NCBI GenBank assembly: GCA_964422135.1
Contig: CAYRAD010000003.1
Location: forward strand, 1-15,872
Direction of reading: 5' to 3'
Source of the DNA: an uncultured Vicingus sp.
GTDB taxonomy: Bacteria; Bacteroidota; Bacteroidia; Flavobacteriales_E; Vicingaceae
Length of the DNA stretch: 15,872 nucleotides
Made by a program: the position numbers and the translations under genes. The notes under the pieces are model-generated. The model was given only the letters and a program-made list of their open reading frames with translations, did no database searches and was not told the DNA's origin. Positions 1 through 14,219 of the stretch are shown one piece after another. Numbering within the stretch: position 1 is the stretch's first letter; every line of letters begins with the position of its first letter.

Positions 1-908
1 GCCCTCCAAAACCAGATTTGATCGTTTACAATACCAACCAATGTAGAGAAGTACAAGATTGGTTTACCTATTTTGCTAGAGAATTAGATTGTCCTATTTA
101 TGGAATTAAACCTCCTCGTCATATTGATGAAGTAACTCAAGGAGATATTGAAGATGTTGCTGCACAATTTAAAGGAATGATTCCGATTTGTGAAGAAACA
201 AGTGGAAACAAATTCGATATAGAAAACTTTAGAGAAACCATTAGGTTAAGTAAAGAAGCTACCGATTTATGGAAAGAAGTGTTGTGGACTGCCACAAACT
301 CACCATCTCCTATTAGCTTTTTCGATGCTACTATTCATATGGGACCAATTGTAGTTCTTAGAGGAACCCAACAAGCAAAAGATTATTACGCTACCTTGCT
401 TGAAGAATTAAAAGGAAACGTTGAAAAAGGAGTAGGATTTATTGAAAAAGAAGGTTGCAGAATTTATTGGGATGGAATGCCTATTTGGGGTAAGCTAAGA
501 CCAATGTCTGAATTGTTCCTTCAAAATAATGCTGCTGTTGTAGCTTCAACTTATTGTAATAGCTGGGTGTTTGATGCTTTCGATCCAAAAGATCCATTTG
601 AATCTTCTGCCAAAGCATACACTGAAATTTTTATCAATAGAAGTGAAGAAGCAAAAGAAAAATACTTAACCAAACTGGTTAAAGACTTTAGAATAGATGG
701 TATTATTTTCCATGATGCAAAAACATGTTTTAATAATTCCAATTCTAATTTCGGAATGCCTCAAAGATTAACTAAAGCATTAGGAATTCCTACGCTTACT
801 ATTGAAGGTGATTTATGTGATTTACGCTTTTATTCAGAAGGACAAAGTGTTACAAAAATGGAAACCTTTATCGAACAAATTGTAGATGCTAAAATGGTAA
901 CCTCATAG
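1..908 (+). CDS. 2-hydroxyacyl-CoA dehydratase / benzoyl-CoA reductase B/C-family subunit (HgdA/B, BcrB/C-like), 5'-truncated by the window edge
   Basis: The frame stays open to the left edge: nt 3-17 read PPKPD with no stop, so the TTG at 18 is only the ORF-track start. The translation has family-typical segments (NQCREVQDWF, IYWDGMPIWG, DGIIFHDAKTCFNNS) with conserved Cys. A BcrAD-type ATPase is encoded two genes downstream. Recognised by eye, not by search. Confidence 0.8.
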   Translation, partial: PPKPDLIVYNTNQCREVQDWFTYFARELDCPIYGIKPPRHIDEVTQGDIEDVAAQFKGMIPICEETSGNKFDIENFRETIRLSKEATDLWKEVLWTATNSPSPISFFDATIHMGPIVVLRGTQQAKDYYATLLEELKGNVEKGVGFIEKEGCRIYWDGMPIWGKLRPMSELFLQNNAAVVASTYCNSWVFDAFDPKDPFESSAKAYTEIFINRSEEAKEKYLTKLVKDFRIDGIIFHDAKTCFNNSNSNFGMPQRLTKALGIPTLTIEGDLCDLRFYSEGQSVTKMETFIEQIVDAKMVTS

Positions 909-1378
909 TGAAGGAAAGTAATAACATAGCAAATTTTAATTTTTCCGGAAAAGGAAAACTTAGCTCAGAAGAAGTTACTGATTTATTAATGGGGACTTGT
1001 CACTATGTTGATTATGTGGAGTTTACTCAAAACAGTAAACAACAATTAGTAGCATTAATTTTTCCTGATAAAATGCTTCTTAACAATCCTGATTATAAAA
1101 AATCACCAGAAGAAGGTTGTTTTTGTCCACGTAGTTTAGATGAAGTTGGAAGATGTTTAACAGGGTGTTTAGGAAAGGTTAACAATGAAATTGATAATCA
1201 AAAGACTACGATTTCTCTAGCTATAATTATTGGAGAGAAATATGCTCTGGAGAATGGAAAATTAACGGATGAGGCAAAAGAAAAATTAGCAACTATTATT
1301 GAACAATATAAAACTCAATCAACTGCTGCTGATGTTTACATCATTGATTTAGAAACAGAAAATGTAGTTAATAATTAG
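908..1378 (+). CDS. hypothetical Cys-rich protein; possibly an accessory subunit; faint resemblance to the C-terminal domain of AMP-forming long-chain acyl-CoA ligases
   Basis: The GTG start overlaps the upstream TAG stop by 1 nt (TAGTG), which suggests translational coupling. It is 156 aa and has a CxC-x10-C-x3-C cluster (GCFCPRSLDEVGRCLTGC). Segments QQLVALIFPD and ENGKLTDEAKEKLATIIEQYK recall acyl-CoA ligase C-termini. No confident family call. Confidence 0.5.
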   Translation: MKESNNIANFNFSGKGKLSSEEVTDLLMGTCHYVDYVEFTQNSKQQLVALIFPDKMLLNNPDYKKSPEEGCFCPRSLDEVGRCLTGCLGKVNNEIDNQKTTISLAIIIGEKYALENGKLTDEAKEKLATIIEQYKTQSTAADVYIIDLETENVVNN

Positions 1379-1417: not shown

Positions 1418-3271
1418 ATGAATAAGAATAAGATAAAAAAAGTCGGAGTTGTAGGAATTGGACCCGTAGGAATGATAATAGCCACTCTGTTAAAGGATGC
1501 TGGTTGTGAAGTTGCCATTTCTGATATAGATAAAAATAAATTAGATCTTATTGAAAAAGAAGGGGCTAAGCTGGAAGGAGGATTTAATAAAGAGGTGAAG
1601 TTTGATCATGTTTATAACACTGTTGAAGAGCTAGAAACACTTGACTTAGATTTGATTATCCTGGCTCTTAAAGCTAATTATTTAGGAGGAGTTGTTGAGA
1701 AAGTAGCCTCTTTTAAAAACAGTAATTTCCCTGTAGTTTGTGCTATGAATGGTATTGATACTGAAAATATTGCTTCCGACATTATTGGAGAATCAAGAAC
1801 CCTACGAATGGTTATCAATTTTGCTGGTAATTTATTTGCTCCGAATATAACCAAAGTAACATTTGTTACACCTCCAACTTACCTTGCATCTATTGATGAT
1901 GCAATTACTGAAACAGCTGAACATTTAGCCGAATGGTTTAAAAAAGCTGATTTGGAAGTTAAGGTGATTAATTCATTTGACTTGTTAGGAAAAATTTGGG
2001 AGAAAACTATTCTTAATGCAGCATTAAGTCCATTGTGTGGTGTAGGAAAACTAACAATGGCAGAGGCAATGAATGACCCTGATACAGTTGAATTAATAGA
2101 GCAAATCATTAATGAAGGGGTTGAAGTTGCTGAAAAAGAAAAAATCAGGTTTCCTGATACCTTTGTTAGAAGTTGCATGAAATACCTTAAAAAAGGTGGT
2201 GATCATTTTCCTTCTCTTGCCGGAGATTTAATTAACAACCGACCAACAGAAATTGATTATTTTAATGGTAAAATAGTTGAGTATGGTAAAAAACATTACG
2301 TCAGAACGTCCTTAAATCTTGCGTTTACAAACATGGTAAAAGCCATGACCAACAAAAATATTATTTCAAGAGTTCCTGGCGTTGCTGGTGATGTAACCAA
2401 AAAGATTTTAAATAAAGGAATGATTGATAATACGATTCAAGCATCTTCATTTAAAAATGTAAACTGTTACTTAGGAATAGATTTAGGCTCTGCTTACTAT
2501 AAGTTTACAGTTATTGATGATAATGGGAATGCTGTTTTCCATTATTTATTACCAACATTAACAGGAGACAAGCAATCGAAGAAAAATGTGATGAACGCTA
2601 TTTCCTCTAGTTTTAATATTAAATATAGTTGTGCTACAGGTTATGGAAGAAAACATTTTGTTGAAGCTGATATAATAAAAACTGAAATTAGTTGTGCAAC
2701 TACTGGGGTATCTTTTTTACACCCTGGAGAAAAAAATATTCTCGACATAGGTGGTGAAGACATTAAAGTAATAAAGTGCAGTGAAGAAAATGTTGTTGCT
2801 AACTTTTATATGAATGATAAATGTGCTGCTGGTACTGGTTCGTTCTTATCAGAAATAGCAGAACAAACCAATATTAATATTGCTAACATGAGTAGTTTGG
2901 CTTCTCTCTCTACATTTGATAAAGAGTTAAACAGCTTCTGTACTGTTTTTGCTAAAACAGAAATAATGAATTGGATTTTCGATGGTATGTCACCACAAGA
3001 TATTTCTAGAGGTATTTATATTTCTATTGCCAATAAAGTTGCCAAAATGAGAATAGAACCTAATCTTCCTACTTTCATGATAGGAGGAGTAATTGGCCAT
3101 CATCCTTATTTAAAAACAATTTTAACCGAAAAATTTAATAAGGACATCGAAATTGTGGAACATCCTCAATTTGTGGTTTCACACGGAGCTGCTTTAATCG
3201 CTAAGCAACATTACGAAAAAAACCCCGATGTTGATTCTAAAGCTCAACCACTTGAGTCTTTAAATTCTTAA
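1418..3271 (+). CDS. fusion protein: N-terminal ketopantoate reductase (ApbA/PanE)-like NAD(P)H 2-oxoacid reductase domain plus C-terminal BcrAD/BadFG-type ATPase (2-hydroxyacyl-CoA dehydratase activator, HgdC/HadI-like)
   Basis: N-terminal part (about nt 1418-2360): Rossmann motif KVGVVGIGPVGMIIA, then GKIWEKTILNAALSPL and RPTEIDYFNGKIV, all typical of ApbA/PanE. C-terminal part (about nt 2465-3271): YLGIDLGSAYYKF, ATGYGR, LDIGGEDIKVI, NDKCAAGTGSFL and SFCTVFAKTE. These align by eye almost motif-for-motif with Acidaminococcus HgdC, including both cluster-ligand Cys. Confidence 0.85.
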   Translation: MNKNKIKKVGVVGIGPVGMIIATLLKDAGCEVAISDIDKNKLDLIEKEGAKLEGGFNKEVKFDHVYNTVEELETLDLDLIILALKANYLGGVVEKVASFKNSNFPVVCAMNGIDTENIASDIIGESRTLRMVINFAGNLFAPNITKVTFVTPPTYLASIDDAITETAEHLAEWFKKADLEVKVINSFDLLGKIWEKTILNAALSPLCGVGKLTMAEAMNDPDTVELIEQIINEGVEVAEKEKIRFPDTFVRSCMKYLKKGGDHFPSLAGDLINNRPTEIDYFNGKIVEYGKKHYVRTSLNLAFTNMVKAMTNKNIISRVPGVAGDVTKKILNKGMIDNTIQASSFKNVNCYLGIDLGSAYYKFTVIDDNGNAVFHYLLPTLTGDKQSKKNVMNAISSSFNIKYSCATGYGRKHFVEADIIKTEISCATTGVSFLHPGEKNILDIGGEDIKVIKCSEENVVANFYMNDKCAAGTGSFLSEIAEQTNINIANMSSLASLSTFDKELNSFCTVFAKTEIMNWIFDGMSPQDISRGIYISIANKVAKMRIEPNLPTFMIGGVIGHHPYLKTILTEKFNKDIEIVEHPQFVVSHGAALIAKQHYEKNPDVDSKAQPLESLNS

Positions 3272-3460: not shown

Positions 3461-5479
3461 ATGGCTTATCAGTATAAAAATTTAAACTTCAGCAAACTAT
3501 CAGTTATTGGCGCTGGTCAAATTGGTCCAGACATCTGTTTACACTTTGCAAAAGTGTTTTGGAAAAACAATGTTGAATTTGTAATTATCGATATTTCTTC
3601 TGAGGCTTTGGCAAAAGCGAAAGCAAAAATCGAAAAGAAAATTAGTAAAGGAGTTGAAACAGGAGCTTTTAAACCTGAAATGGCTGAAACAATGAAAAAT
3701 TCCATTGCTTATTCGTCAGATTATGAATTAGTAAGAGGATCAGGTATTGTTTTGGAAGCTGCTACTGAAGATGGTAGAATTAAAGACATTATATTTAAAC
3801 AAGTGGAAGCATTAACAGATGATTCTTGTTTGTTCTTGTCTAATTCTTCTCACATGAAACCAGAGGTTATCTTCAGAAATATAGCCAATAAAAAAAGATG
3901 TTTGGTCACTCATTATTTCTTTCCTGCAGATAGAAATCCTATTGTTGAGGTAGTTCCAGGTGAGGCGACTGACCGTCATATTACAGCAGATTTACTAGGT
4001 TTTTACGAAGCAATCGGAAAAGTCCCTATTGAAGTACAAAGCTCTTACGGTTATGCCATTGACCCCATATTTGAAGGATTGTGTGAATTAGCGATTTTAT
4101 GCTTAGAGAAAGGGTATGGTTCTATTAAGGAAATAGACAAAATGGCTCAAAAAACATTACATCAGGGAGTTGGACCGTTTACAGCATTAAACCTAACCGG
4201 TGGTAATCCGATTACCAATCATGGATTGGAAGAAATGCGTGAAACACATATTCCTTGGTTCAGGTCTCCCAAAGCCTTGCAGGAAGCAACAGCTAACGGA
4301 ACCATGTGGGATACTGCTAAAAGAGGAGAAGAAGTAACGGTTGACCCTGCGAAAGCAGAAGTATTGAGGAAACAATTCTTAGGTGGATATTTCGCCTTGG
4401 TTTGTTACATCATCGATTTGGGGATTACCAATGTAAATGATTTGGATATGGCTGCAGAAATTGCATTGGTAATAGCCGCTCCATTTACTTTGATGAACAA
4501 AATTGGAATTGACGAATCACATGCGTTGGTCGCAGCATGGTGTGAAGAACATACCGAATTCCCTTTCCCAAAATCATTGGATAAGGCAAAAGCAGCTGGT
4601 GGCTGGACAATTTCAAGAATTGTGGCAAAAAAAAATGATAACATCGCAGTACTGACCATCAGAAGACCAAAAGTGTTGAATGCCTTGAATCTTGCAGTTT
4701 TAAAAGAATTAAAAATTGAAATTGAAAAAGCCGAAAATGACGCAAGTGTTGATGGAATTGTAATTACAGGTTTTGGAACAAAAGCTTTCGTCTCTGGTGC
4801 TGATATCAATATGTTGGCTGCTTTAAAAACTCCCGAAGAAGGATATAACAATTCTCATACTTTCCAACAATTGATTAATACCATTGAAGATTGTAAAAAG
4901 CCAACGGTTTGTGCATTAAATGGTTTTGCTTTTGGTGGCGGAAACGAATTGGCAATTACTTGTACAGCAAGAGTTGCCAAAAAAGGATTGCCTGTTGTAG
5001 CTTGTCAACCTGAAGTGAATTTAGGGTTTATTCCAGGCTCAGGAGGAACACAACGTTTACCACGATTAGTCGGGGTTGATGTTGCTGCAGAAATCCTTCG
5101 TACTGCACGACCAGTATCTGGAAAAGAAGCCTTAGAAATAGGATTAATAGATAAAGAAATAGAAGGAGATTTAGTGGAAGGAGCAGTAGGTTTTGCAAAA
5201 AAACTAGTAAAAGGAGAAGTTCAGCCTCGTGATTTTATGAAGGGAGGTATCAAAGAAGATTTAGCTCCTAAGGAAATCAACATTGGTCATTTGAGTAAAA
5301 AAATTGATGACATTATGAATAAGGCAATTTATGATGGAATTAAATTACCATTAAACGAAGCCTTAGAATTAGAATCAAAACTTTTTGGAGAATGCATCTT
5401 AACTGAAGACATGAAAATAGGTTTGGATAATTTCATGACCAACGGACCAAGAGCTAAAGCAGAATTTAAGCACTCTTAA
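3461..5479 (+). CDS. bifunctional 3-hydroxyacyl-CoA dehydrogenase (N-terminal) / enoyl-CoA hydratase (C-terminal)
   Basis: N-terminal NAD motif VIGAGQIGPDI, then SNSSHM and THYFFPADRNPIVEVVPG (HAD signature region). The C-terminal crotonase fold starts near nt 4610: AVLTIRRPKVLNALN, FVSGADI, ALNGFAFGGGNELA and QPEVNLGFIPGSGGTQRLPRLVG, with both catalytic Glu positions present. Confidence 0.9.
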   Translation: MAYQYKNLNFSKLSVIGAGQIGPDICLHFAKVFWKNNVEFVIIDISSEALAKAKAKIEKKISKGVETGAFKPEMAETMKNSIAYSSDYELVRGSGIVLEAATEDGRIKDIIFKQVEALTDDSCLFLSNSSHMKPEVIFRNIANKKRCLVTHYFFPADRNPIVEVVPGEATDRHITADLLGFYEAIGKVPIEVQSSYGYAIDPIFEGLCELAILCLEKGYGSIKEIDKMAQKTLHQGVGPFTALNLTGGNPITNHGLEEMRETHIPWFRSPKALQEATANGTMWDTAKRGEEVTVDPAKAEVLRKQFLGGYFALVCYIIDLGITNVNDLDMAAEIALVIAAPFTLMNKIGIDESHALVAAWCEEHTEFPFPKSLDKAKAAGGWTISRIVAKKNDNIAVLTIRRPKVLNALNLAVLKELKIEIEKAENDASVDGIVITGFGTKAFVSGADINMLAALKTPEEGYNNSHTFQQLINTIEDCKKPTVCALNGFAFGGGNELAITCTARVAKKGLPVVACQPEVNLGFIPGSGGTQRLPRLVGVDVAAEILRTARPVSGKEALEIGLIDKEIEGDLVEGAVGFAKKLVKGEVQPRDFMKGGIKEDLAPKEINIGHLSKKIDDIMNKAIYDGIKLPLNEALELESKLFGECILTEDMKIGLDNFMTNGPRAKAEFKHS

Positions 5480-5584: not shown

Positions 5585-7720
5585 ATGAATATGAAATACA
5601 AAATTGGCATAGATGTAGGAGGAACCTTTACCGACTTTTTTTTGGTAGCTGATAATGGTGATTCTTTGATGCACAAAACGTTATCTACTCCCGAAGATTC
5701 GTCTGAAGGGTTTATAACCGGCTTAAAGGAAATGGCAGAAAAGTTGAATTTGCCAGAAGCTGAGTTCATTGATAACATTGATACTATAGTTCATGGAACT
5801 ACTGTTGCAACAAATGCCTTGTTGACTTTAGGTGGTGCAAAAACCGCATTAATCACTACCAAAGGTTTCCGTGATGCTTTAGAAATGCGAAGAGGAATTC
5901 GTGAAGAACGATATGACAATCACTTTAAAAATGTTACCCCTTTAGTTCCAAGATATTTAAGATATACGATTGATGAAAGAATTGACGCTGAAGGAAATAT
6001 CTTACACAAAGTTGATTACTCAGAGTTAGATGTTATTATTTCAAAACTAAAAGAGGAAAAGGTTGAGGCAGCTGCAGTTTGTTTTATGAATTCTTATTTG
6101 AATAGTGAGAATGAAAACGCAGCAACCGAGTATTTAAGAAAAGCATTACCAGATACATTTATTTCTGCTTCTTATGAAGTATTGCCTTCCGTAAGATTTT
6201 ATGAGAGGGTAAGTACAACTGTTGTAAATGCGTATATCGGAGTAGTGGTAGATTCCTATTTAAAATCATTATTAGGGAAGCTTAAAAAATTAAACTTCAA
6301 CGGTAAGCTAATGATTATGCAATCTAACGGAGGTGTTGTAACTCCTGAGATAGCTTGTAAGATTGCCGCTGTTGCAGTTCTTTCTGGTCCTGCTGCTGCA
6401 CCAATCGCTGGTGCTTATTATGCCAATTTATTAGGATATGATAACTGCATTACCATGGATATGGGAGGTACCAGTTTTGATGCATCATTAGTGGTGAACA
6501 AACAATGTGTTACCAGTACAGATGCTGATATTGATAGATATAGAGTGGCATTGCCAACATTAGATATTATTACCATTGGTGCAGGAGGAGGAAGTATTGG
6601 TTGGGTTGATGAAGGCGGCTTATTGCAGATGGGACCAAAAAGTGCCGGTTCATTGCCAGGCCCAATTTCTTATGATAGAGGTGGCGAGAACCCTGCTTGT
6701 ACAGATGCAGATTTAATCTTAGGATATTTAGATCCTAATTTCTTTGCAGGAGGAAAATACAAATTAAATAAAGACAAAACCATTGAGGTAACCGGGAAAG
6801 TTTTAGGAGAAGGCCTTGGCCTTAGTGCTGAAAAAGCTGCTGCCGGAATGTATAGGGTAATCAACATGAACATGGCACAAGGTGTTCGTCAGGTTTCTGT
6901 AGAAAGAGGTTATGATCCTAGAGAGTTTTTAATGATTTGTGCAGGTGGAGCAGGTTCGATTCACGCTGGAGAAATTTGTCGAGAGTTAGAAATACCAATG
7001 TTTGTAGTGCCTAGTGTTGCACCAATTTTTTGTGCTGCAGGTATGTTGTTGGGCGATTTAAAACATGACTATGTTCGATCATATTTAACAAAACTTTCTG
7101 GTTTAGATAAAGTTGAATTTTTAAGATTGTATGATGAAATGAAGGCTGAAGCAATTAAAACTTTGATTGCAGAAGGAATTACCGAAGATAAAATTGAATA
7201 CATCCCTTCTTTAGATTTAAGATATATCGGTCAATTCCATGAAGTTCCATTAGAGGTTTCTATGGATGATGTTTATGGATTTAATTTGGAAGCAATCAAA
7301 GAAGCTTTTCATAAGGAGCACAGCCGTCAGTTCGGCTACGATTTAAAAGAAGAAGGAACAGAATTGGAAGTAATCAATATTCGATTTAGAGCAGTTGGCA
7401 TTACAGAAAAACCTCATTCATTATCTGGAAATATAGTAAAAGGAGCAAGCACATTAGAGGAAGCTTTAAAAGATAGAAGAATGGCTTATGTTCCTGAAAA
7501 AGATGAAATGCAAGAAGTACCAGTTTATGATGGAGACATCCTGAACAGTAATTTCAAAATTAATGGACCTGCCATTATCGAACAGGTAAACACAACTGTT
7601 TTTTTAGGTGAAAGCTACAATTGCGAAACAGGTATTGGAGGAGCATTTATTGTTTACAACAAAATATTAATGCCCAATGGCTTTAAGAAGAAAAAGGGCA
7701 GTGAGGAAATGGTGAATTAA
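5585..7720 (+). CDS. hydantoinase A / oxoprolinase / acetone-carboxylase-beta family ATPase subunit (HyuA-type)
   Basis: The N-terminus MKYKIGIDVGGTFTDFFLV is diagnostic of Hydantoinase_A family proteins, and MDMGGTSFD is the second ATPase phosphate motif. Length is 711 aa. The start could be the ATG at 5585 or at 5591. Confidence 0.9.
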   Translation: MNMKYKIGIDVGGTFTDFFLVADNGDSLMHKTLSTPEDSSEGFITGLKEMAEKLNLPEAEFIDNIDTIVHGTTVATNALLTLGGAKTALITTKGFRDALEMRRGIREERYDNHFKNVTPLVPRYLRYTIDERIDAEGNILHKVDYSELDVIISKLKEEKVEAAAVCFMNSYLNSENENAATEYLRKALPDTFISASYEVLPSVRFYERVSTTVVNAYIGVVVDSYLKSLLGKLKKLNFNGKLMIMQSNGGVVTPEIACKIAAVAVLSGPAAAPIAGAYYANLLGYDNCITMDMGGTSFDASLVVNKQCVTSTDADIDRYRVALPTLDIITIGAGGGSIGWVDEGGLLQMGPKSAGSLPGPISYDRGGENPACTDADLILGYLDPNFFAGGKYKLNKDKTIEVTGKVLGEGLGLSAEKAAAGMYRVINMNMAQGVRQVSVERGYDPREFLMICAGGAGSIHAGEICRELEIPMFVVPSVAPIFCAAGMLLGDLKHDYVRSYLTKLSGLDKVEFLRLYDEMKAEAIKTLIAEGITEDKIEYIPSLDLRYIGQFHEVPLEVSMDDVYGFNLEAIKEAFHKEHSRQFGYDLKEEGTELEVINIRFRAVGITEKPHSLSGNIVKGASTLEEALKDRRMAYVPEKDEMQEVPVYDGDILNSNFKINGPAIIEQVNTTVFLGESYNCETGIGGAFIVYNKILMPNGFKKKKGSEEMVN

Positions 7721-7724
7721 AAAT

Positions 7725-7823
7725 GAAACGCAGACCTGCCTGCGGTAGGCAGGTAACACGGATGATTATGATAAATACAGGTTTAAACCTTAAAAACCAT
7801 AACAATCAGCGTCATCAGCGTTC
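7725..7823 (+). repeat. intergenic imperfect-palindrome element, copy 2 (99 nt, with nested 19-nt hairpin)
   Basis: Sequence: GAAACGCAGA-[CCTGCCTGCGGTAGGCAGG]-TAACACGGATGATTATGAT...CCATAACAATCAGCGTCATCAGCGTTC. The apex contains the perfect 12-nt palindrome AGGTTTAAACCT. It lies between the stop at 7720 and the ATG at 7858. Confidence 0.9.
7735..7753 (+). repeat. 19-nt GC-rich hairpin module nested in the 5' arm of copy 2
   Basis: CCTGCC-TGCGGTA-GGCAGG forms a perfect 6-bp stem. It sits exactly between the GA and TAACAC that are contiguous in copies 1 and 4. Confidence 0.8.
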
Positions 7824-7857
7824 TAATAAAAAGAATGAATATTAACCTATAAATACA

Positions 7858-8964
7858 ATGGGAAAAGAAATTAAAAATACATTTATTGACGGTTCGATGC
7901 TGATTATTGAAGCATTGGTGAGGTCTGGAGCAGATATTTTTATCGGCTACCCAATAACTCCCTCTAATAGATTTTACTCTTACGGACAGAAAAGATTTTC
8001 ATCTTTTTATCCAGCACCCGATGAAATATCGGTATTGCAATGGATGTCAGGAGCTTCGGCTGCAGGAAAAATACCCGTTACAGCAACTGCATTTCCAGGG
8101 CTGGCTTTAATGGTAGAATCGTTGAACATGGCTTATGTAATGGAATTGCCAATGGTGTTGGTAATTACTCAACGTTTAGGACCAAGCACAGGATCGGCAA
8201 CTATTGGAGCACAAGGAGATTTAGGAATAGTTAACGGAATTATTTCAGGTTTTCCTGTTCCTACTTTTTGTCCAGCTAGCTTTGAGGATTGCTGGTCACT
8301 TTCTCAAAAAGCAATGGAAACAGCTGTTCAATTAAGGACTCCTGTTATTTTATTGACTTCTAAAGAAATGGTGATGACAAGCAAGAGTTTTGACATCTCT
8401 AAATTAGAAGAGATTAAACCTGTAAACAGAGAGAAACCTAAAATTACTGGAGAATATAAATCATATCAAGCTGGAGCAGATTTGATAGCTCCATTTTTAG
8501 ATGTGAATAACAATGAGCATCAGGTTAGAATAAATGCTTCTATGCATAATGAAGAAGGTAGAATTGTGAAAAACGTAGAATCACTAAACATTACTAAAAG
8601 ATTAGCTGAAAAAATTAATACAAAAGCAACGGGGCTTGCTTGTTTTGATTATAAAAAAGAAGAAGGAGCATCTAAATTGATTATTTCTTATGGAATTTCG
8701 GCTTTAGCTGCAATTGATGCAGTTGAAGAAATACAAGCCAAAAATCAAAAAGTTTCTTTATTAATTGTTAAAACGCTAATTCCATTGTCAAATGAAATTT
8801 ACGATATCATTGATTCATACGATGATGTTTTATTTGTAGAAGAAAATTTAAATGGACAATTGAAAGAAATAATTTTCGGGAAACGAAATAACAAAAAAGT
8901 AAAAAGTATAAATAAATCTGGAAGCATGATTGCTCCTTCAGAAATTGTAAACGAATTCGCTTAG
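7858..8964 (+). CDS. 2-oxoacid:ferredoxin oxidoreductase alpha subunit (KorA/PorA-like)
   Basis: GYPITPSN, DEISVLQWMSGASAAGKIPVTATAFPGLALMVESL and QRLGPSTGSATIGAQGDL match the pyruvate/2-oxoglutarate:ferredoxin oxidoreductase alpha core by eye. The gene lies 4 nt upstream of the beta gene. Confidence 0.85.
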   Translation: MGKEIKNTFIDGSMLIIEALVRSGADIFIGYPITPSNRFYSYGQKRFSSFYPAPDEISVLQWMSGASAAGKIPVTATAFPGLALMVESLNMAYVMELPMVLVITQRLGPSTGSATIGAQGDLGIVNGIISGFPVPTFCPASFEDCWSLSQKAMETAVQLRTPVILLTSKEMVMTSKSFDISKLEEIKPVNREKPKITGEYKSYQAGADLIAPFLDVNNNEHQVRINASMHNEEGRIVKNVESLNITKRLAEKINTKATGLACFDYKKEEGASKLIISYGISALAAIDAVEEIQAKNQKVSLLIVKTLIPLSNEIYDIIDSYDDVLFVEENLNGQLKEIIFGKRNNKKVKSINKSGSMIAPSEIVNEFA

Positions 8965-8968
8965 TAAG

Positions 8969-10213
8969 ATGAAAAATGAAATGTTATCAGGAGTAAAAGC
9001 ACCATTTTGTCCGGGCTGCGGGCATGCTCCTTCGGTAAAATATTTATCAAAAGCTTTAACTGAATGTGGATATAATCCATTGGATGTGGTGATGGTAAGT
9101 GATATTGGATGTAATGGATTAATAGATCCATTGTTCAATACACATACTATTCATGGATTGCATGGAAGATCCCCAGCTTTAGCTTTGGGAGTAGTTTTAG
9201 GATTGGAAAATCCAAACAAAAAAGTGGTGACCATGCAAGGAGATGGTGGAGCAACTATAGGATTACAACATCTAATGGAAGCATCAAGAAGAAACGTTGA
9301 TATGACATTGATTGTGATGAACAATTTGATTTATGGAATGACTGGTGGTCAGGTAAGTGGATTGACAACCAACGAGTTTAAAGAAGAAAAACACATTCAG
9401 GACGATGCACCTCCTTTCGATGTATGCCAGTTAGCTCATCAAGCTGGTGCGGCTTATGTTGCTAGAGTAAATAATCCAAAAAATATTACTGAAAAATTGG
9501 TGGAAGCATTTAAAACACCAGGATTTTCGTTAGTAGAAATTTCTAGTTTGTGTCAGCCTTATGGGGCAAAAAAAATAGAGCAATTAACTGGATGGATTAA
9601 AGATGAGGTGTTGCTGAATAATAATTATCCTGTTGGTAAAAATAAAGTGAAAGAAACAGTTTCATTAATAAACGACAAACAGGTTCTTGAAACAAAATAT
9701 CAATCAGCTATAGAAGGCACAGTTGGAATTATTATAGCAGGTTCTGCTGGTGGTGGTGTTCAGTCGGCAGCCAAACTATTGGCAGAAGCAGCTATCATGT
9801 CGGGACTGTCTGCAACAATGAAAGGAGAATATCCTATAACTGTTGGAACAGGGTTTTCGTTAGGAGAAGTTATTTTATCTAAAAATGAGATCAATTACAC
9901 AGGCTTAGAAAAACCAGATGTTTCAATCGTTGTTTCAGATAATGGACTTTTAAAAGTTCAGGGAAAAGGAATTGAACTTCCTAATCTGTATGTAGATGCT
10001 AAAGTTTCCATTCCTGAAAATTTAACAGCTAAAGTTTTTGATTTTGATAAAATGGCTGGGAAAAAAGGTTCTGCTTTATGTGCAATAGCACTTTGGATTG
10101 AAGAATCAGGATTGTTGGACATCAATGCATTAAAAGAAGTTGCCGCAAAACATAAATATGGTGAAAAATTATTAAAAATAATTGACTCATCTAAAGAATT
10201 ACAGGTAGTGTGA
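8969..10213 (+). CDS. 2-oxoacid:ferredoxin oxidoreductase beta (TPP-binding) subunit fused to a gamma-type domain
   Basis: N-terminal FCPGCGH and the TPP motif GDGGATIGLQHLMEASRRNVDMTLIVMNNLIYGMTGGQ indicate a beta subunit. The C-terminal about 170 aa (IIIAGSAGGGVQSAAKLLAEAAIMSGL...YPITVGTGFS...KPDVSIV) looks like the gamma (POR) domain. Confidence 0.85.
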   Translation: MKNEMLSGVKAPFCPGCGHAPSVKYLSKALTECGYNPLDVVMVSDIGCNGLIDPLFNTHTIHGLHGRSPALALGVVLGLENPNKKVVTMQGDGGATIGLQHLMEASRRNVDMTLIVMNNLIYGMTGGQVSGLTTNEFKEEKHIQDDAPPFDVCQLAHQAGAAYVARVNNPKNITEKLVEAFKTPGFSLVEISSLCQPYGAKKIEQLTGWIKDEVLLNNNYPVGKNKVKETVSLINDKQVLETKYQSAIEGTVGIIIAGSAGGGVQSAAKLLAEAAIMSGLSATMKGEYPITVGTGFSLGEVILSKNEINYTGLEKPDVSIVVSDNGLLKVQGKGIELPNLYVDAKVSIPENLTAKVFDFDKMAGKKGSALCAIALWIEESGLLDINALKEVAAKHKYGEKLLKIIDSSKELQVV

Positions 10214-10243
10214 ATGTAGAATTAAGAAAGTAGAATTAAGAAT
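10211..10243 (+). repeat. post-stop short tandem repeat, GTAGAATTAAGAA x2
   Basis: TGAATGTAGAATTAAGAA-A-GTAGAATTAAGAAT starts at the TGA stop of the beta-gamma oxidoreductase gene. The 13-nt unit occurs at 10216-10228 and 10230-10242. Confidence 0.8.
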
Positions 10244-10262
10244 GTATTATGGATAAAAAATA

Positions 10263-10362
10263 GAACGCAGACCTACCTGAGGTAGGAAGGTAAAACGGAT
10301 GATTATGATAACAGTAGATACAAATCTTACAAAATCATAACAGATCAGCGTCATCAGCGTTC
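10263..10362 (+). repeat. intergenic imperfect-palindrome element, copy 3 (100 nt, with nested 19-nt hairpin)
   Basis: Sequence: GAACGCAGA-[CCTACCTGAGGTAGGAAGG]-TAAAACGGATGATTATGAT...ATCATAACAGATCAGCGTCATCAGCGTTC. The apex pairs GTAGAT with ATCTTAC. It lies between the stop at 10213 and the ATG at 10376. Confidence 0.9.
10272..10290 (+). repeat. 19-nt GC-rich hairpin module nested in the 5' arm of copy 3
   Basis: CCTACCTGAGGTAGGAAGG has the same length and position as the module in copy 2, with 16 of 19 positions identical. Its best stem is CCTACC-TGA-GGTAGG, a shifted register. Confidence 0.8.
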
Positions 10363-10375
10363 CAACAAAATAAAA

Positions 10376-12046
10376 ATGAAAATAGACAAAATATTATTGA
10401 GCATTTTTCAACGAGCGTTTAAATCGATAACGGATGAAATGAGTATTTCATTGACTAAGACTACACGTTCTCCAATTCTGTGTGAAGCAAAAGATTTTGT
10501 TACAGGGTTGTATGATGCTGAAGGAAACATGCTGGAACAAACGGAGAATTTACCTATTCTAAGTTTTTCGCTTGGACCAGTTTGTAAAGTTATTTTAGAC
10601 CAGTATGGCGATGATATTTTTGAAGGAGATATTATTATACATAATGATGTGTTCTCTATGGGAAACCAAAATAACGATGTAGCCATTTTCAAACCCATAT
10701 TTTGTGAAGGAACATTAATCGGTTGGTCGGCAGCAAAAGGTCACCAAGCAGATATTGGAGGTGCTGTTCAAGGAGGATATAATCCAAACGCAACAGAAGT
10801 TTGGCAAGAAGCATTGAGAATACCTGCTGTTAAGCTTTATGAAAAAGGAAAATTTAGAGAAGATGTTTGGAACCTGATCTTTGCCAATATTCGATTAACG
10901 ATGGTTCAGGAAGATATTAAAGCTCAAATTGGTGCTTGTAGTTTAGGGGAAAGAAGATTAAAAGCATTGGTTTCTAAATATGGAGTTGAGAGTTACAATG
11001 CGCATAAACAAGAGCTTTTTAACAGTACAGAAACCATGATGCAATCAGAAATTGCATTAGTGCCAAATGGAAAGTACGAAGGAAGTAGCATGGTTTATTA
11101 CGATGGGAAACATCCGGGTTCAAAGTTTGAAATTAAAGCCATTATCACTGTAAAGGATGAAGAAATAATTTTTGATTTCTCAGAAACTTCACCACAAACA
11201 AATGGCTTTGTAAATGGTACTTACACTTCGTCTTGTTCTGCAATTACCTTAACATTTTTACAAATGGTTAATCCTAACATTCCTCATAATCAGGGAATGA
11301 TTCGGCCATTAACTTATATCGTTCCTGAAGGAACTATCTTAAATGCTTCCTATCCAAAAGCAACAACTTTCGGAAACCATTTATGTCCTCAAGTAGCAGA
11401 TTCAATATTTAAAGCATTAGGTCCAGCTATGCCGGGAAGGGTTACAGCTGGTTGGAATCATTTATTGTGTTCATTGTTTACTGGAGATCATCCAAGAACA
11501 AATGAGAAATATGTTGACATCTGTTTTATGGGATTAAAAGGAGGTTCAGGAGCATTAGAAGGAGATGATGGTTATGATCATATTGGGATGATTGATGCTT
11601 CTGGAGGATTGTTGGATCAGGATTATGAAATGTACGAACAACAAACACCTCATTTAATTCTAAAACACGAATACCTAACTAACTCTGGCGGAGTTGGAAA
11701 ATGGAGAGGTGGTTTAGGGGTTGAAACCAATATAAAAATGGGTGGAGATAATGCTACAATGGTTGTTTTTGGTGATGGTGATGTGGAACAGAATTATGGT
11801 CTTTTCGGAGGAAAAGGAAGTGTTTTAAACAGCATCTCATTAACCTATCCTGACGGAAAAGAGCATGTGCCAATGAGTAAAGATATTGTTGAAGGAATTC
11901 CGGATGGAACCATTTACAAACAAATTGCTGGAGGTGGTGGTGGATACGGAAACCCTAAAGAAAGAGATAGAGATTCTGTAAAATTGGATTTATTAAATGA
12001 AGTGATAACTGAAGAACAAGCGGTTAATGAATATGGATTGAAATAA
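10376..12046 (+). CDS. hydantoinase B / oxoprolinase family subunit (HyuB-type)
   Basis: N-terminus LLSIFQRAFKSITDEMSISLTKTTRSPILCEAKDFVTGLYDAEGNMLEQ and the later GGSGALEGDDG and GGVGKWRGGLG segments are typical of Hydantoinase_B proteins. Confidence 0.9.
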   Translation: MKIDKILLSIFQRAFKSITDEMSISLTKTTRSPILCEAKDFVTGLYDAEGNMLEQTENLPILSFSLGPVCKVILDQYGDDIFEGDIIIHNDVFSMGNQNNDVAIFKPIFCEGTLIGWSAAKGHQADIGGAVQGGYNPNATEVWQEALRIPAVKLYEKGKFREDVWNLIFANIRLTMVQEDIKAQIGACSLGERRLKALVSKYGVESYNAHKQELFNSTETMMQSEIALVPNGKYEGSSMVYYDGKHPGSKFEIKAIITVKDEEIIFDFSETSPQTNGFVNGTYTSSCSAITLTFLQMVNPNIPHNQGMIRPLTYIVPEGTILNASYPKATTFGNHLCPQVADSIFKALGPAMPGRVTAGWNHLLCSLFTGDHPRTNEKYVDICFMGLKGGSGALEGDDGYDHIGMIDASGGLLDQDYEMYEQQTPHLILKHEYLTNSGGVGKWRGGLGVETNIKMGGDNATMVVFGDGDVEQNYGLFGGKGSVLNSISLTYPDGKEHVPMSKDIVEGIPDGTIYKQIAGGGGGYGNPKERDRDSVKLDLLNEVITEEQAVNEYGLK

Positions 12047-12065
12047 AATAGAAATCAGAAATCAT

Positions 12066-12185
12066 TGTCAATTCGAGTGATTTTTTGAAACGTAGTGGAG
12101 AAAAATTGTATCGAGAATAAATGATTTTAGAAAAAGTTGTTCTCGTTACATTTTGACTAAAAAAGTCAAAACACTCGAACGGACA
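12066..12185. mobile_element. MITE-like 120-bp long-hairpin element
   Basis: The ends TGTCAATTCGAGTG (12066-12079) and CACTCGAACGGACA (12172-12185) are reverse-complementary at 12 of 14 positions. An inner inverted repeat AAATTGTATCGAGAA (12103-12117) / TTCTCGTTACATTTT (12140-12154) matches at 13 of 15. A further small hairpin TTTTGACT-AAAAA-AGTCAAAA lies at 12151-12171. There is no ORF of its own. A mobile origin is an inference. Confidence 0.5.
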
Positions 12186-12207
12186 CTTTTTGAGAAATAT
12201 AAAAATT

Positions 12208-12621
12208 ATGAGCACACACGAAACAATATTACCGGAAGGTTGGCCAACACCCAAAGGATATGCTAATGGAATATTAGCCGCTAAAGGAAGAACACTTTTT
12301 CTAGCCGGACAAGTTGGTTGGTCAGCTGAGGAGAAATTTGCAAGCGATAAATTGGTTCCTCAATTTGAACAAGCTTTAAAAAACATTGTTGCAATTGTAG
12401 AGAAAGCTGGAGGCAAACCAACAGACATCTGCAAAATGACATGTTTCTGTAAAGATAGAGACCAATATTTAGCAACAAGGGGTGAGCTTGGGACAATATG
12501 GAAAAATATCATGGGAAGACATTATCCATGCATGAGCATGATTTTCGTAGTTGATTTATTGGATCATCCTGCTTTAATAGAGATAGAAGCTATGGCTGTG
12601 ATTCCTACGAATTACGAATAA
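12208..12621 (+). CDS. RidA/YjgF/TdcF (endoribonuclease L-PSP) family protein
   Basis: PKGYANGILAAKGRTLFLAGQVGW and a C-terminal LIEIEAMAV are family-typical. I prefer the ATG at 12208 (MSTHE...) over the ORF-track TTG at 12190, which lies only 5 nt past the end of the repeat element. Confidence 0.8.
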   Translation: MSTHETILPEGWPTPKGYANGILAAKGRTLFLAGQVGWSAEEKFASDKLVPQFEQALKNIVAIVEKAGGKPTDICKMTCFCKDRDQYLATRGELGTIWKNIMGRHYPCMSMIFVVDLLDHPALIEIEAMAVIPTNYE

Positions 12622-12634
12622 ACGAATTACGAAT
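12607..12634 (+). repeat. tandem ACGAATTACGAAT x2 spanning the RidA stop and the GxxExxY start
   Basis: Units are at 12607-12619 and 12622-12634. The first encodes the RidA C-terminus and the T of its stop codon. The second ends in the first two bases (AT) of the ATG start at 12633-12635. Confidence 0.8.
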
Positions 12635-13052
12635 GACAGGATATACAGTAAAAAATAAAGATTTATTATTTCCAAAACTTTCATATAAGATTGTAGGAAT
12701 CTTATTTGATGTTTATAATACATTGGGTTATGGGTATTTGGAAAAATATTATCAAAAGGCTATTGCTGCTCAGCTTAAGAAAGAAAAAATAAAATTTACT
12801 GAACAAGAAAAGGTTGAGATTGTTATTGCAAATGAGGTTATAGCAAAAGGATATACTGATTTTATTATTGAGGATAAAATTATTTTGGAAATTAAAAAAG
12901 GCAATTCTTTTAGAAAAAACAATATTGATCAATTACACAGTTATTTAAAAATGAAAAAAATGGAATTAGGAATTCTTGCAAATTTCACATCAAAAGGCTT
13001 GTTGTATAAGCGGATAGTTAATATTAGTAATTCTAAAATTCGTAATACGTAG
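12633..13052 (+). CDS. GxxExxY-motif protein, PD-(D/E)XK nuclease-fold superfamily
   Basis: The eponymous motif is present as GYLEKYY within FDVYNTLGYGYLEKYYQKA. A D...ExK motif follows in TDFIIEDKIILEIKKG. Size is 139 aa. The gene is flanked by ACGAATTACGAAT-type repeats. Confidence 0.8.
   Translation: MTGYTVKNKDLLFPKLSYKIVGILFDVYNTLGYGYLEKYYQKAIAAQLKKEKIKFTEQEKVEIVIANEVIAKGYTDFIIEDKIILEIKKGNSFRKNNIDQLHSYLKMKKMELGILANFTSKGLLYKRIVNISNSKIRNT
13027..13046 (-). repeat. inverted partner of the ACGAATTACGAAT repeat at the 3' end of the GxxExxY gene
   Basis: GTAATTC (13027-13033) and ATTCGTAAT (13038-13046) are reverse complements of GAATTAC and ATTACGAAT in the upstream tandem units. Confidence 0.55.
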
Positions 13053-13056
13053 TACT

Positions 13057-14184
13057 ATGAATTTCGAACTAAACGACATACAAAAATCCGTACAACAAAC
13101 TTTTATAGATTTTGTTGATAAGAGGGTGATGCCTCAGGCAGCAGCAATTGATGAAAATGCTGAATTCCCTATGGAACTTTTTAAGGAAGTTGGAGAATTA
13201 GGGTTTTTTGGCATGCGTTATCCTGAAGATGCTGGTGGTACCAATATGGATATTCTTTCATACTGTTTAGCAGTGATAGAACTTTCAAGGGGCTCGATGT
13301 CGCTTGCTGCAGCTTGCACAATGCAATCACTAATGGCAACTTATTTCTTATATCGATTTGGTGATAAGGAAGTAAAAGGTCATTTTGATGCTGCCATGAA
13401 AGGGGAGGAAATAGGTGCTATCTGCATGACTGAACCCAATGCCGGAAGTGATTTGTTTGCTATCAAAACAAAAGCATTGGTGAAAGAAGATTACTTTTTG
13501 TTGAGTGGTCAAAAAACATGGGTTACATCTGCACCAGTTGCCAACTTTTTTACTGTCTTGGCAAAAACAGATAACCACGATAAATTATCCATCTTTTTTG
13601 TTCCATCTAATTTGGAAGGGGTAACTGTCGGAAAGAAAATTGACAAATTAGGGGCTTGTGGTTCCGTAACCAGTGAGGTTGCTTTTGACAATGTAAAACT
13701 TCCAAAAAACTACTTATTAGGTGAGATTGGTGGGGGAACAAAATGTTTAATGGAGATATTGGCAGAGATTAGAATTATGACTGCTGCACTATCTATTGGT
13801 GTTGCAACAGCTGCTTTTGAAGATGCATTACAATATGCCAAAGAAAGAGAACAATTTGGAAAGCCTATTGGAAAATTTCAAGCAGTAAAAATGAAGTTTG
13901 CAGAAATGGAAGTTCAACTACAAACAGCTAAACATTATGTGTTTTACGCAGCTTATTTAAGCGACAACAATTTACCTCGACATAAAGAATCAATGATTGC
14001 CAAATTGTATGCATCAGAATGTGCCAACTCTATTTGCGACCAAGCTTCAAGAGTTTTAGCATCTTATGGTTATGCAACAGAATACTCGCTGCAACGCTAT
14101 TTACGTGATGCTCGATTTACATTGATTGGTGGAGGTACATCAGAAATTTTGAAAATAAATATAGGTAGAGAGTTGGGATTGTAG
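13057..14184 (+). CDS. FAD-dependent acyl-CoA dehydrogenase
   Basis: Typical ACAD layout: GFFGMRYPE, CMTEPNAGSDL, KTWVTSA, QYAKEREQFGKPIG. The C-terminal motif is IGGGTSEI, which resembles isovaleryl-CoA dehydrogenase IGAGTSE rather than the YEGTS of MCAD/SCAD. Confidence 0.9.
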   Translation: MNFELNDIQKSVQQTFIDFVDKRVMPQAAAIDENAEFPMELFKEVGELGFFGMRYPEDAGGTNMDILSYCLAVIELSRGSMSLAAACTMQSLMATYFLYRFGDKEVKGHFDAAMKGEEIGAICMTEPNAGSDLFAIKTKALVKEDYFLLSGQKTWVTSAPVANFFTVLAKTDNHDKLSIFFVPSNLEGVTVGKKIDKLGACGSVTSEVAFDNVKLPKNYLLGEIGGGTKCLMEILAEIRIMTAALSIGVATAAFEDALQYAKEREQFGKPIGKFQAVKMKFAEMEVQLQTAKHYVFYAAYLSDNNLPRHKESMIAKLYASECANSICDQASRVLASYGYATEYSLQRYLRDARFTLIGGGTSEILKINIGRELGL

Positions 14185-14189
14185 AATGA

Positions 14190-14208
14190 TGAATGTCGAA
14201 TTAAGAAT
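14190..14208 (+). repeat. single copy of the TGAATGTNGAATTAAGAA module
   Basis: TGAATGTCGAATTAAGAAT matches 10211-10229 at 17 of 18 positions. It lies 6 nt after the acyl-CoA dehydrogenase stop codon. Confidence 0.75.
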
Positions 14209-14219
14209 AGAATATGAAT

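Follow-up and report, generated by a model that had tools for sequence, protein, structure and literature searches.

A PanE-family reductase fused to an HgdC/HadI-type activator ATPase, encoded within benzoyl-CoA reductase gene clusters of uncultured bacteria

A single gene in a 15,872-nucleotide stretch of DNA from an uncultured Vicingus sp. (contig CAYRAD010000003.1; the whole stretch is referred to as the window) encodes a PanE/ApbA-family NAD(P)H dehydrogenase joined to an HgdC/HadI-type ATPase, the "activator" of 2-hydroxyacyl-coenzyme A (CoA) dehydratases. The protein is a genuine, evolutionarily fixed joining of two neighboring genes. In homologous loci it forms part of a small block of genes embedded in benzoyl-CoA reductase (BCR) clusters. 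With a probability of roughly 0.55, this block converts a 2-oxoacid to the (R)-2-hydroxyacid, its CoA ester and an enoyl-CoA that undergoes beta-oxidation to benzoyl-CoA, arylpyruvates being the leading candidates for the starting compounds. The fused open reading frame (ORF) is composed as follows.

1418..3271, plus strand: fusion gene, ATG start, 617 amino acids, no internal stops
1439..2365, plus strand: PanE/ApbA-family NAD(P)H dehydrogenase domain, residues 8-316 (Pfam ApbA and ApbA_C)
1454-1471, plus strand: GxGxxG motif of the reductase domain
2003-2005, plus strand: Lys196 (catalytic) of the reductase domain
2246-2257, plus strand: TEID motif of the reductase domain
2366..2467, plus strand: interdomain linker, residues 317-350, about 34 amino acids
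2468..3214, plus strand: HgdC/HadI-type ATPase ("activator") domain, residues 351-599 (BcrAD_BadFG and TIGR00241)
2816-2839, plus strand: DKCAAGTG motif of the activator domain, with Cys469
2939-2953, plus strand: CTVFA motif of the activator domain, with Cys508

The fusion of a complete reductase to a complete ATPase, first proposed in a sequence-only reading of the window, is borne out by Pfam and NCBIfam matches above cutoff in an ORF without an internal stop. In Pfam, ApbA (residues 9-149) scores 58.6 bits against a cutoff of 22.2, ApbA_C (residues 188-310) 100.8 bits against 22.7, and BcrAD_BadFG (PF01869, residues 352-595, covering the full profile 1-271) 118.3 bits against 31.5. The NCBIfam models TIGR00241 (acyl-CoA dehydratase activase) and TIGR00745 (apbA_panE subfamily) score 166.7 and 158.8 bits, with cutoffs of 125.4 and 141.35, respectively. 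The linker of about 35 amino acids described by the same reading agrees with the interval bounded by the ends of split orthologs, and the motifs it had named (GxGxxG, the Lys helix, TEID, DKCAAGTG, and CTVFA) all occur, without variation, in the 53 fusion proteins that were aligned. Invariance in the reductase domain comprises G13/G15/G18, N111-G112, W194, K196, N200, and T277-E278-I279, so the catalytic Lys and Glu, the possible loss of which had been raised as an objection, are in place (K196 and E278). Together with N111, these residues are presumably equivalent to N98, K176, and E256 of E. coli PanE. In the activator domain, C469 and C508 as well as D355/G357 and D443/G445/G446 of the ATPase phosphate motifs are conserved in 53 of 53 proteins; the two Cys residues match the cluster-Cys columns ("ndkCaagtg" and "CtvfaesE") of HadI (PDB ID: 4eht) and HgdC (PDB ID: 1hux). 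Both halves look catalytically competent.

The N-terminal domain is best classified as a nicotinamide-dependent dehydrogenase of the PanE family that resembles D-mandelate dehydrogenases and retains the catalytic Asn/Lys/Glu set. It does not reach the equivalog level of a true ketopantoate reductase, as all the respective NCBIfam models score far below their cutoffs (NF005091, 109.6 against 252; NF005092, 98.3 against 500; NF006083, 52.3 against 371). Its matches among PDB sequences are 2ew2 (E 4e-22) and the D-mandelate dehydrogenases 3wfi (E 5e-22) and 8wl1 (E 1e-18), compared with the ketopantoate reductases from Thermococcus (E 1.6e-13) and E. coli (PanE, E 1e-5). The top Foldseek matches are D-mandelate dehydrogenases as well (3wfi/5x20, also 8wl1; 27% identity, TM-score 0.85), with true ketopantoate reductases below them at 17-23% identity. 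By these comparisons the domain is nearer to characterized D-mandelate dehydrogenases than to characterized ketopantoate reductases, in agreement with its earlier placement on the D-2-hydroxyacid dehydrogenase side of the PanE family. The nearest solved relatives (Enterococcus, PDB IDs: 3wfi/3wfj/5x20; Lactobacillus brevis, PDB ID: 8wl1) are NAD-dependent, free-standing enzymes of lactic acid bacteria, unlinked to radical dehydratases, whereas the domain described here is fused. D-mandelate dehydrogenases related to ketopantoate reductases act on bulky 2-oxoacids, e.g., benzoylformate and 2-ketoisovalerate (PMC4230899). As identity is only 27%, substrate specificity is not transferable from these enzymes. 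Residue D36, at the end of strand β2, is acidic in 38 of the 53 fusion sequences, which is a weak hint of a preference for NADH.

The C-terminal domain is classified as an HgdC/HadI-type ATPase that carries both Cys residues for the [4Fe-4S] cluster bridging the homodimer. Its matches in the PDB are HadI (4eht, E 2e-36), HgdC (1hux, E 1.5e-33), and the reductase of the double-cubane cluster protein (DCCP; 7yyl_E, E 2e-30), and the ATPase subunits MbdP/MbdQ are also matched. The AlphaFold2 model of the domain superposes on 4eht, 1hux, and 9gai_D with TM-scores of 0.85-0.87. By analogy with these proteins, it would transfer single electrons to an HGD-D partner in an ATP-driven manner. The model of the entire fusion (pLDDT 86.9, pTM 0.55) contains two well-folded domains, the packing of which against each other is predicted without confidence. 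The pLDDT of the reductase domain is mostly above 90, drops below 50 at residues 314-324, and a short helix follows. The flexible linker suggests that joint expression or co-localization of the two activities is the main effect of the fusion; a composite active site of rigid geometry is improbable.

The same three Pfam domains were found in more than 120 protein clusters (90% identity level) in a search of 5.8 billion proteins. These clusters are 62-68% identical to the window protein and about 605-646 amino acids long (582 in one case); clustering at 50% leaves few representatives, i.e., P0121 (55%), P0122 (45%, with a short linker), and P0124 (37%). Relatives were detected by tblastn in 158 species genomes (one genome per species), and 80 near-full-length ones (residues ~1 to ~600) were kept. 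The carriers belong to Vicingaceae (closest, 68%), other Flavobacteriales, Chitinophagaceae, Saprospiraceae, Cytophagales, Ignavibacteria, and Chlorobiota, with isolated others. In all 84 loci analyzed, which come from independent assemblies, one continuous ORF of about 596-649 amino acids spans both domains; a frameshift or stop artifact at the junction, flagged for checking in the first reading, was not seen. Clusters that carry a public name are called either "2-dehydropantoate 2-reductase" or "(R)-2-hydroxyacyl-CoA dehydratase activating ATPase". The literature searched (on the fusion, on BCR in Bacteroidota/Ignavibacteria, and on phenyllactate dehydratase with benzoyl-CoA) contained no description of the architecture. 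The belief that it was undescribed thus holds for the literature searched and fails for the databases, where the architecture is common and automatically annotated; it appears unstudied.

Orthologs of the two halves also occur as separate genes. In L087 (Bacteroidetes GWF2_41_31; L and P numbers designate homologous loci and proteins), the cluster is gene-for-gene the same, and a reductase of 325 amino acids (50% identical to residues 8-316 of the window protein) is followed 8 nucleotides downstream by an activator of 260 amino acids (49% identical to residues 351-599). Locus L100 is likewise split, with the two genes adjacent. The sequence-only reading had regarded such two-gene loci, combined with an artifactual junction, as fatal to the fusion; the loci do exist, the artifact does not, and the adjacent split genes document a gene fusion and not an error. 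In L086 (Ignavibacterium), L099, L103, L119, and L136, the reductase gene is located a few genes away from the activator gene. The nearest unfused relatives, P0125 (326 amino acids) and P0126 (267 amino acids), are about 50% identical to the respective halves, and the P0125 family is large and present in the same phyla as the fusion carriers. In a rough neighbor-joining tree of the reductase domains, the main fused clade is sister to a split clade, and P0122 and P0124/P0155 are placed elsewhere, suggesting at least three independent origins of the fusion to the activator. Linker sequences show partial conservation among members of the main fused clade, and the linker of P0122 is far shorter.

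The same reductase subfamily has been joined to other enzymes of the proposed pathway. In L084, a metagenome-assembled genome (MAG) of Myxococcota, it is fused to an ortholog of the HGD-D protein encoded upstream of the window fusion (10001-12187, 728 amino acids, a singleton). This gene is followed by a free activator and then by a three-subunit molybdenum enzyme, the alpha subunit of which is closest to 4-hydroxybenzoyl-CoA reductase. In P0151 (L170), the reductase is fused to an enoyl-CoA hydratase via a Cys-rich linker (CYDCSHVKDCIDIFDYC), beside a gene for the alpha subunit of electron transfer flavoprotein.

Upstream of the fusion gene, the window contains the following.

1..908, plus strand: 3' part of the gene for an HGD-D protein (HGD-D3; C-terminal 301 amino acids), frame open from nucleotide 3, running off the left end of the window
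908..1378, plus strand: 156-amino-acid ORF, a free-standing Cys4 domain, between HGD-D3 and the fusion

The window, a same-strand row of genes, starts inside HGD-D3, and the cluster context was read from homologous loci. Their near-universal order begins with two HGD-D and two BcrAD genes arranged as bcrC-bcrB-bcrA-bcrD and an acyl-CoA ligase, and continues with HGD-D3, the fusion, a thiolase, a Zn-alcohol dehydrogenase, two crotonase-family genes, and a 3-hydroxyacyl-CoA dehydrogenase/hydratase; homologs of a two-subunit 2-oxoacid:ferredoxin oxidoreductase often end related clusters. In 74 of 77 loci the gene immediately preceding the fusion is that of HGD-D3, a ligase is present in 65 of 67 (AMP-forming in 42, ADP-forming of the ACS type in 23), and bcrB-like genes are found upstream in 54 of 55. 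As BcrC (426, cutoff 421), BcrB (654, cutoff 487), Had (457, cutoff 339), and Oah (591, cutoff 464) pass NCBIfam equivalog cutoffs, the surrounding cluster is assigned to the Thauera-type class I benzoyl-CoA pathway (bcrCBAD, had, oah, dch); BcrA, BcrD, and Dch score under their cutoffs, BcrD only just. The other two HGD-D genes of these clusters are BcrC and BcrB by equivalog score. Between the bcrCBAD-like and the thiolase/had/oah/dch genes lies the block, which encodes the ligase, a single HGD-D protein of the HadB-like kind, the reductase, and the activator.

The block is not common to all such clusters. In a metagenome scan seeded with BcrB, the PanE-like reductase was present in 13 of 13 sufficiently long clusters of the present type (BcrB identity of 69% or more), usually together with the ligase, HGD-D3, and the activator; the reductase and activator were fused in eight, split but adjacent in one, and apart in four. 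In a second cluster type (BcrB 62-66% identical, order had-oah-dch-bcrCBAD), the reductase was absent from about 20 long contigs, one of which contained HGD-D3 and an activator on the opposite strand. This distribution by cluster type marks the block as a lineage-specific addition, not required by benzoyl-CoA reductase. Genes for molybdenum hydroxylases most similar to 4-hydroxybenzoyl-CoA reductase turn up repeatedly within or next to the clusters (L084, L086:11040-14743, and L089:6998-9738) or upstream on the minus strand (L092, L098, L104, L106, L107, L109, L110, and L122), including many loci of this cluster type in the metagenome scan; the alpha subunit in L086 scores 951 bits against the 4-hydroxybenzoyl-CoA reductase model (cutoff 995). 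Their recurrence points to para-hydroxylated aromatic substrates. An aromatic-type aminotransferase is encoded in the clusters of L003 (same contig as L032) and L052. A scan of nucleotides 1-5600 found promoter-like sites at chance level and no terminators between genes, and among 16 loci scanned, motifs of 2x[4Fe-4S] ferredoxins were essentially absent from both cluster types. Loci L023 and L024 hold only the fusion and a thiolase, and in L088 the surroundings of the distant, GC-rich fusion P0124 include genes for NifU and cysteine desulfurase as well as an operon for ribosomal proteins.

HGD-D3 is the presumed partner of the activator domain. Its residues are numbered here after the homolog L001:8246-9478, in which the window part corresponds to residues 112-411; the translation of nucleotides 3-905 is 86% identical to residues 112-409. 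The window part matches Pfam HGD-D with 188.5 bits, and a full-length homolog aligns end to end with HadB (PDB ID: 3o3m_A; E 4e-50, profile E 1e-66 over residues 16-408). Residues C86, C125, and C353 are invariant and match the Cys residues of the three-Cys [4Fe-4S] site of HadB. In BzdO, the cluster ligands are Cys95/128/380, and the coordination in HadB is the same (PMC11971306). Among NCBIfam models, that of the HadB alpha subunit is matched best, followed by BcrB, both under equivalog cutoffs (BcrB 122-166 bits, cutoff 486.55); BzdO scores 71-94 (cutoff 448.6). HadB leads by a wide margin in both sequence and profile comparisons (229 bits against 158 and 107), and MbdO is matched with E 1e-36 to 4e-45. 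A profile-profile alignment of HGD-D3 with the BcrC- and BcrB-like proteins of its own cluster, aimed at placing its Cys residues beyond those of HadB on the six double-cubane ligands, aligned only the C-terminal half, with BcrC. HGD-D3 is presumed to be a radical dehydratase served by the activator domain.

The 156-amino-acid ORF between HGD-D3 and the fusion has no match in Pfam, NCBIfam, or the PDB. In BLASTP it resembles the C-terminal domain of the AMP-type ligase L003:7040-8794 (residues 424-551; 38% identity, E 1e-30), and the CxC-x11-C-x3-C motif is kept in 78 of 79 copies of this Cys4 domain. The domain occurs as a separate ORF in 23 of 24 loci in which an ADP-forming ACS-type ligase takes the place of the AMP-type ligase. 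Since the free copy persists where the AMP-type ligase has been replaced, the conservation pattern suggests a function of its own, e.g., a metal site or docking.

By the predicted activities of its members, the block is complete for the known radical-dehydratase route from a 2-oxoacid to a 2-enoyl-CoA. In the proposed pathway, the reductase domain would convert a 2-oxoacid (alternatively, a 2-oxoacyl-CoA) to the (R)-2-hydroxyacid with NAD(P)H, and the ligase would form the CoA thioester of the 2-hydroxyacid. The ATPase domain would dimerize via its cluster, be reduced by ferredoxin (e.g., from the clustered 2-oxoacid:ferredoxin oxidoreductase), and pass a single electron to the [4Fe-4S] cluster of the HGD-D protein in an ATP-driven step; the latter would convert the 2-hydroxyacyl-CoA to the 2-enoyl-CoA via ketyl-radical chemistry. 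The adjacent hydratase/dehydrogenase and thiolase would then yield a product shorter by two carbons. For arylpyruvates, the route would lead via aryllactyl-CoA to cinnamoyl- or coumaroyl-CoA and further to (4-hydroxy)benzoyl-CoA and acetyl-CoA, followed by ring reduction. Phenylpyruvate and 4-hydroxyphenylpyruvate are the leading substrate candidates because of the aromatic context, the D-mandelate-dehydrogenase-like reductase, and the occasional aromatic-type aminotransferase; this is the least certain step, and for the scheme as a whole we infer the reaction direction, substrates, dehydratase chemistry, and electron source. The earlier assignment of the reductase and activator to one 2-hydroxyacyl-CoA pathway fits the position of HGD-D3 directly upstream as well as the L084 and P0151 fusions, and remains conditional as to substrate and dehydratase chemistry; it did not include the BCR-cluster setting, the single HGD-D subunit type with extra Cys residues, or the ligase-based CoA activation. 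For a sulfate reducer, a 2026 paper considers aryllactyl-CoA/cinnamoyl-CoA chemistry leading to benzoyl-CoA as a hypothetical possibility (PMC13416013). More tentatively, and with the odds against it, the block might represent an undescribed anaerobic route in Bacteroidota, Ignavibacteria, and Chlorobi from the 2-oxoacids of Phe or Tyr to benzoyl-CoA, with a new homomeric, single-subunit enzyme of the 2-hydroxyacyl-CoA dehydratase (HAD)/BCR radical-enzyme family bearing extra Cys residues and perhaps a second Fe-S site, an ATP-dependent electron donor fused to the first enzyme of the route, and a Cys4 component that is free-standing or part of the ligase.

The closest logical counterpart is the LdhA/HadA/HadI/HadBC system of Clostridioides difficile, which has the same parts: a D-2-hydroxyacid dehydrogenase, CoA activation, a [4Fe-4S] activator, and an HGD-D enzyme. 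Among solved structures, the C-terminal domain is matched best by HadI (4eht) of this system, and HGD-D3 by its HadB (3o3m_A). In the block, however, the reductase is of the PanE family, not related to D-lactate dehydrogenase, and is fused to the activator; only one HGD-D type is present, with no HadC-like subunit; an AMP- or ADP-forming ligase takes the place of a family III CoA-transferase in nearly all loci; and the genes lie inside a benzoyl-CoA degradation cluster and not in an amino-acid fermentation operon. Canonical 2-hydroxyacyl-CoA dehydratases are alpha/beta heterodimers. The chemistry proposed for the block is that of FldH/FldA/FldI/FldBC from Clostridium sporogenes, in which an aromatic 2-oxoacid is converted via (R)-aryllactate and aryllactyl-CoA to cinnamoyl-CoA; this likeness is a presumed, functional one. 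The product of the Fld system proceeds to phenylpropionate, whereas that of the block would be beta-oxidized to benzoyl-CoA and dearomatized.

With Thauera-type BCR clusters (bcrCBAD, dch, had, oah, korAB), the loci share the bcrCBAD order and the two-subunit 2-oxoacid:ferredoxin oxidoreductase. A ligase/HGD-D3/reductase/activator block is not known from the clusters of Thauera or Aromatoleum. DCCP and its reductase (PDB IDs: 6eno/7yyl) pair a homomeric HGD-D-family protein with a homodimeric HgdC-like ATPase, the latter resembling the C-terminal domain; HGD-D3, in contrast, matches DCCP weakly (E 2.5e-5), in its C-terminal half only, and scores 52-63 bits against NCBIfam double_cubane (cutoff 350).

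Several observations weigh against the proposed dehydratase pathway. HGD-D3 scores well under the HadB equivalog cutoff of 750 (145 bits for the partial window sequence, 216-232 otherwise). It also contains Cys residues absent from HadB: C37 and C296 are invariant in 87 of 87 sequences, and C141, C174, and C383 are present in 89-93% of them. C296 has a counterpart among the Cys residues of 6eno, the double-cubane protein, and C37 among those of MbdO; a second cluster in a homomeric enzyme is possible, and HGD-D3 may not be a simple dehydratase. A HadC-like beta subunit is absent from the block, and a single HGD-D protein accompanies the activator in L084 and L085. The single ligase could alternatively be the benzoate-activating enzyme, which would leave the block without CoA activation of its own. 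Known activators work catalytically, and a 1:1 fusion to a flux-carrying dehydrogenase is unexpected for a dehydratase. Aminotransferases are clustered in only two distinct loci, all the fusion carriers are MAGs, and some fusions lie outside any aromatic context (L023, 10001-13115; L024; L088, 1164-2993), where they may be remnants or serve another role.

The strongest competitor, clearly less probable than the dehydratase pathway but by no means negligible, regards HGD-D3 as an ATP-consuming reductase of the benzoyl-CoA-reductase or double-cubane kind instead of a redox-neutral dehydratase. Such an enzyme might act on a substituted aryl-CoA by dearomatization or dehydroxylation, or might eliminate an alpha-hydroxyl group reductively, the ATPase being used once per electron, and the PanE-like domain would carry out the adjacent carbonyl/alcohol step on the same substrate. 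Besides the invariant Cys residues beyond the three of HadB (with C296 and C37 recalling 6eno and MbdO), HGD-D3 is clearly related to the BCR catalytic subunits MbdO, BzdO, and BcrB (162 bits), the block is placed between bcr and ring-pathway genes with a single HGD-D subunit type, and a 1:1 fusion would suit stoichiometric use of the ATPase better than catalytic use. The closer match of HGD-D3 to HadB and its low double_cubane score nevertheless argue for the dehydratase, as does the absence from the block of an electron-storage subunit similar to BzdN or BcrC. In L085, moreover, HGD-D3, the activator, and a family III CoA-transferase stand in a row, as in the had and fld dehydratase operons; CoA_transf_3 was found in this locus only, and family III CoA-transferases are absent from the window and nearly all other loci. 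Finally, a reductive HGD-D3 would leave the 2-oxoacid-reductase-like domain without a natural role.

Considerably less probable is a pathway running in the reverse direction, in which glutaconyl-CoA derived from the opened ring would be hydrated to (R)-2-hydroxyglutaryl-CoA by HGD-D3 and the activator, freed of CoA, and oxidized to 2-oxoglutarate by the PanE-like domain, and the clustered oxidoreductase would use the 2-oxoglutarate for supplying benzoyl-CoA reductase with reduced ferredoxin. Two facts speak for this idea: further downstream, the benzoyl-CoA pathway is known to yield glutaryl-CoA, and the BCR of Thauera relies on 2-oxoglutarate:ferredoxin oxidoreductase for its reduced ferredoxin. 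It also draws on the many clusters with a two-subunit 2-oxoacid:ferredoxin oxidoreductase resembling the 2-oxoglutarate type, and on the CoA-transferase of L085, which is matched best by dicarboxylate CoA-transferases (mesaconate, glutarate). However, glutaryl-CoA dehydrogenase is not consistently present in the cluster, and the conserved neighbor is an acid-activating ligase and not a thioesterase or transferase. The nearest solved relatives of the reductase use bulky hydrophobic or aryl 2-oxoacids, and BCR clusters of other lineages do without the block.

There is little to recommend a third alternative, which takes the N-terminal domain for a standard ketopantoate reductase of CoA biosynthesis, or for a donor of electrons from NAD(P)H to the activator cluster, and sees in the fusion no significance for a pathway, or at most a regulatory one. 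The passed TIGR00745 cutoff, the public annotation as 2-dehydropantoate 2-reductase, and a pathway heavy in CoA chemistry are compatible with it, but every ketopantoate-reductase equivalog cutoff was failed and the match to E. coli PanE is distant. The strict synteny with HGD-D3 and the ligase, and the fusions of the same subfamily to an HGD-D protein and an enoyl-CoA hydratase, also argue for a pathway role, and the domain shows neither a flavin-binding domain nor an Fe-S motif by which the two electrons of a hydride could be separated. An assembly, sequencing, or gene-calling artifact that joined two separate genes, for which only the two-gene loci L087 and L100 could be adduced, is refuted by the continuous ORF in 84 of 84 loci from independent assemblies, the more than 120 clusters, the partly conserved linker, and a junction free of stops and frame changes.

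The block differs from canonical 2-hydroxyacyl-CoA dehydratase systems in its reductase family, the fusion, the single HGD-D type, and the use of a ligase, an arrangement without precedent in the literature searched, as well as in its location within a BCR operon. Radical dehydratases have class I benzoyl-CoA reductases as their sister enzymes, and the two have hitherto been studied separately, by organism and by pathway; here they occur in one operon. The carriers are abundant uncultured bacteria of sediments, groundwater, and lakes. If the proposed pathway is true, it constitutes a new anaerobic mineralization of aromatic amino acids that bypasses phenylacetate and phenylglyoxylate, and HGD-D3 would offer a naturally homomeric HAD-family enzyme for mechanistic study. 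The misannotation as "2-dehydropantoate 2-reductase" in hundreds of MAGs hides both the activator and the pathway.

Downstream of the fusion gene, the following features were identified in the window.

3461..5479, plus strand: bifunctional 3-hydroxyacyl-CoA dehydrogenase/enoyl-CoA hydratase, 672 amino acids (Pfam 3HCDH_N, 3HCDH, and ECH_1)
7858..10213, plus strand: two-subunit 2-oxoacid:ferredoxin oxidoreductase, alpha subunit of 368 and beta/gamma subunit of 414 amino acids (Pfam POR_N, TPP_enzyme_C, and POR)
12633..13052, plus strand: PD-(D/E)XK nuclease-family (PDDEXK_3) gene, between RidA and acyl-CoA dehydrogenase

The bifunctional enzyme, a counterpart of which is present in most related clusters, is presumed to catalyze the next step, i.e., hydration of the enoyl-CoA and oxidation. 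Its dehydrogenase part is N-terminal and its hydratase part C-terminal, the reverse of the domain order in FadB/FadJ. The oxidoreductase matches the NCBIfam models for the 2-oxoacid:acceptor oxidoreductase alpha subunit and the 2-oxoglutarate:ferredoxin oxidoreductase beta subunit, both under cutoff, and could plausibly supply the activator as well as benzoyl-CoA reductase with reduced ferredoxin.

An extra sub-cluster follows the hydroxyacyl-CoA dehydrogenase/hydratase gene in 9 of 58 loci with enough downstream sequence, namely at 5585..15666 of the window and, among others, in L001, L008, L011, L028, L033, L040, and L047. It comprises hydantoinase A/B-like genes, RidA, an acyl-CoA dehydrogenase closest to acryloyl-CoA reductase AcrC and glutaryl-CoA dehydrogenase, a fusion of 459 amino acids between an HMG-CoA-synthase-like domain and DUF35 (OB fold), and an SCP-x-type thiolase. 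The sub-cluster may be a second peripheral route, perhaps for ketone carboxylation or lactam opening. The two hydantoinase-family genes (within 5585..12046) are closest to the caprolactamase CapA/CapB (663 and 392 bits, cutoff 1000) and then to acetophenone carboxylase. They are separated in the window by the oxidoreductase genes and adjacent in L001 and L008, which indicates an insertion or rearrangement in the window. Similarly, RidA and the acyl-CoA dehydrogenase are directly adjacent in L001, so the nuclease-family gene at 12633..13052 looks like a small insertion into the operon.

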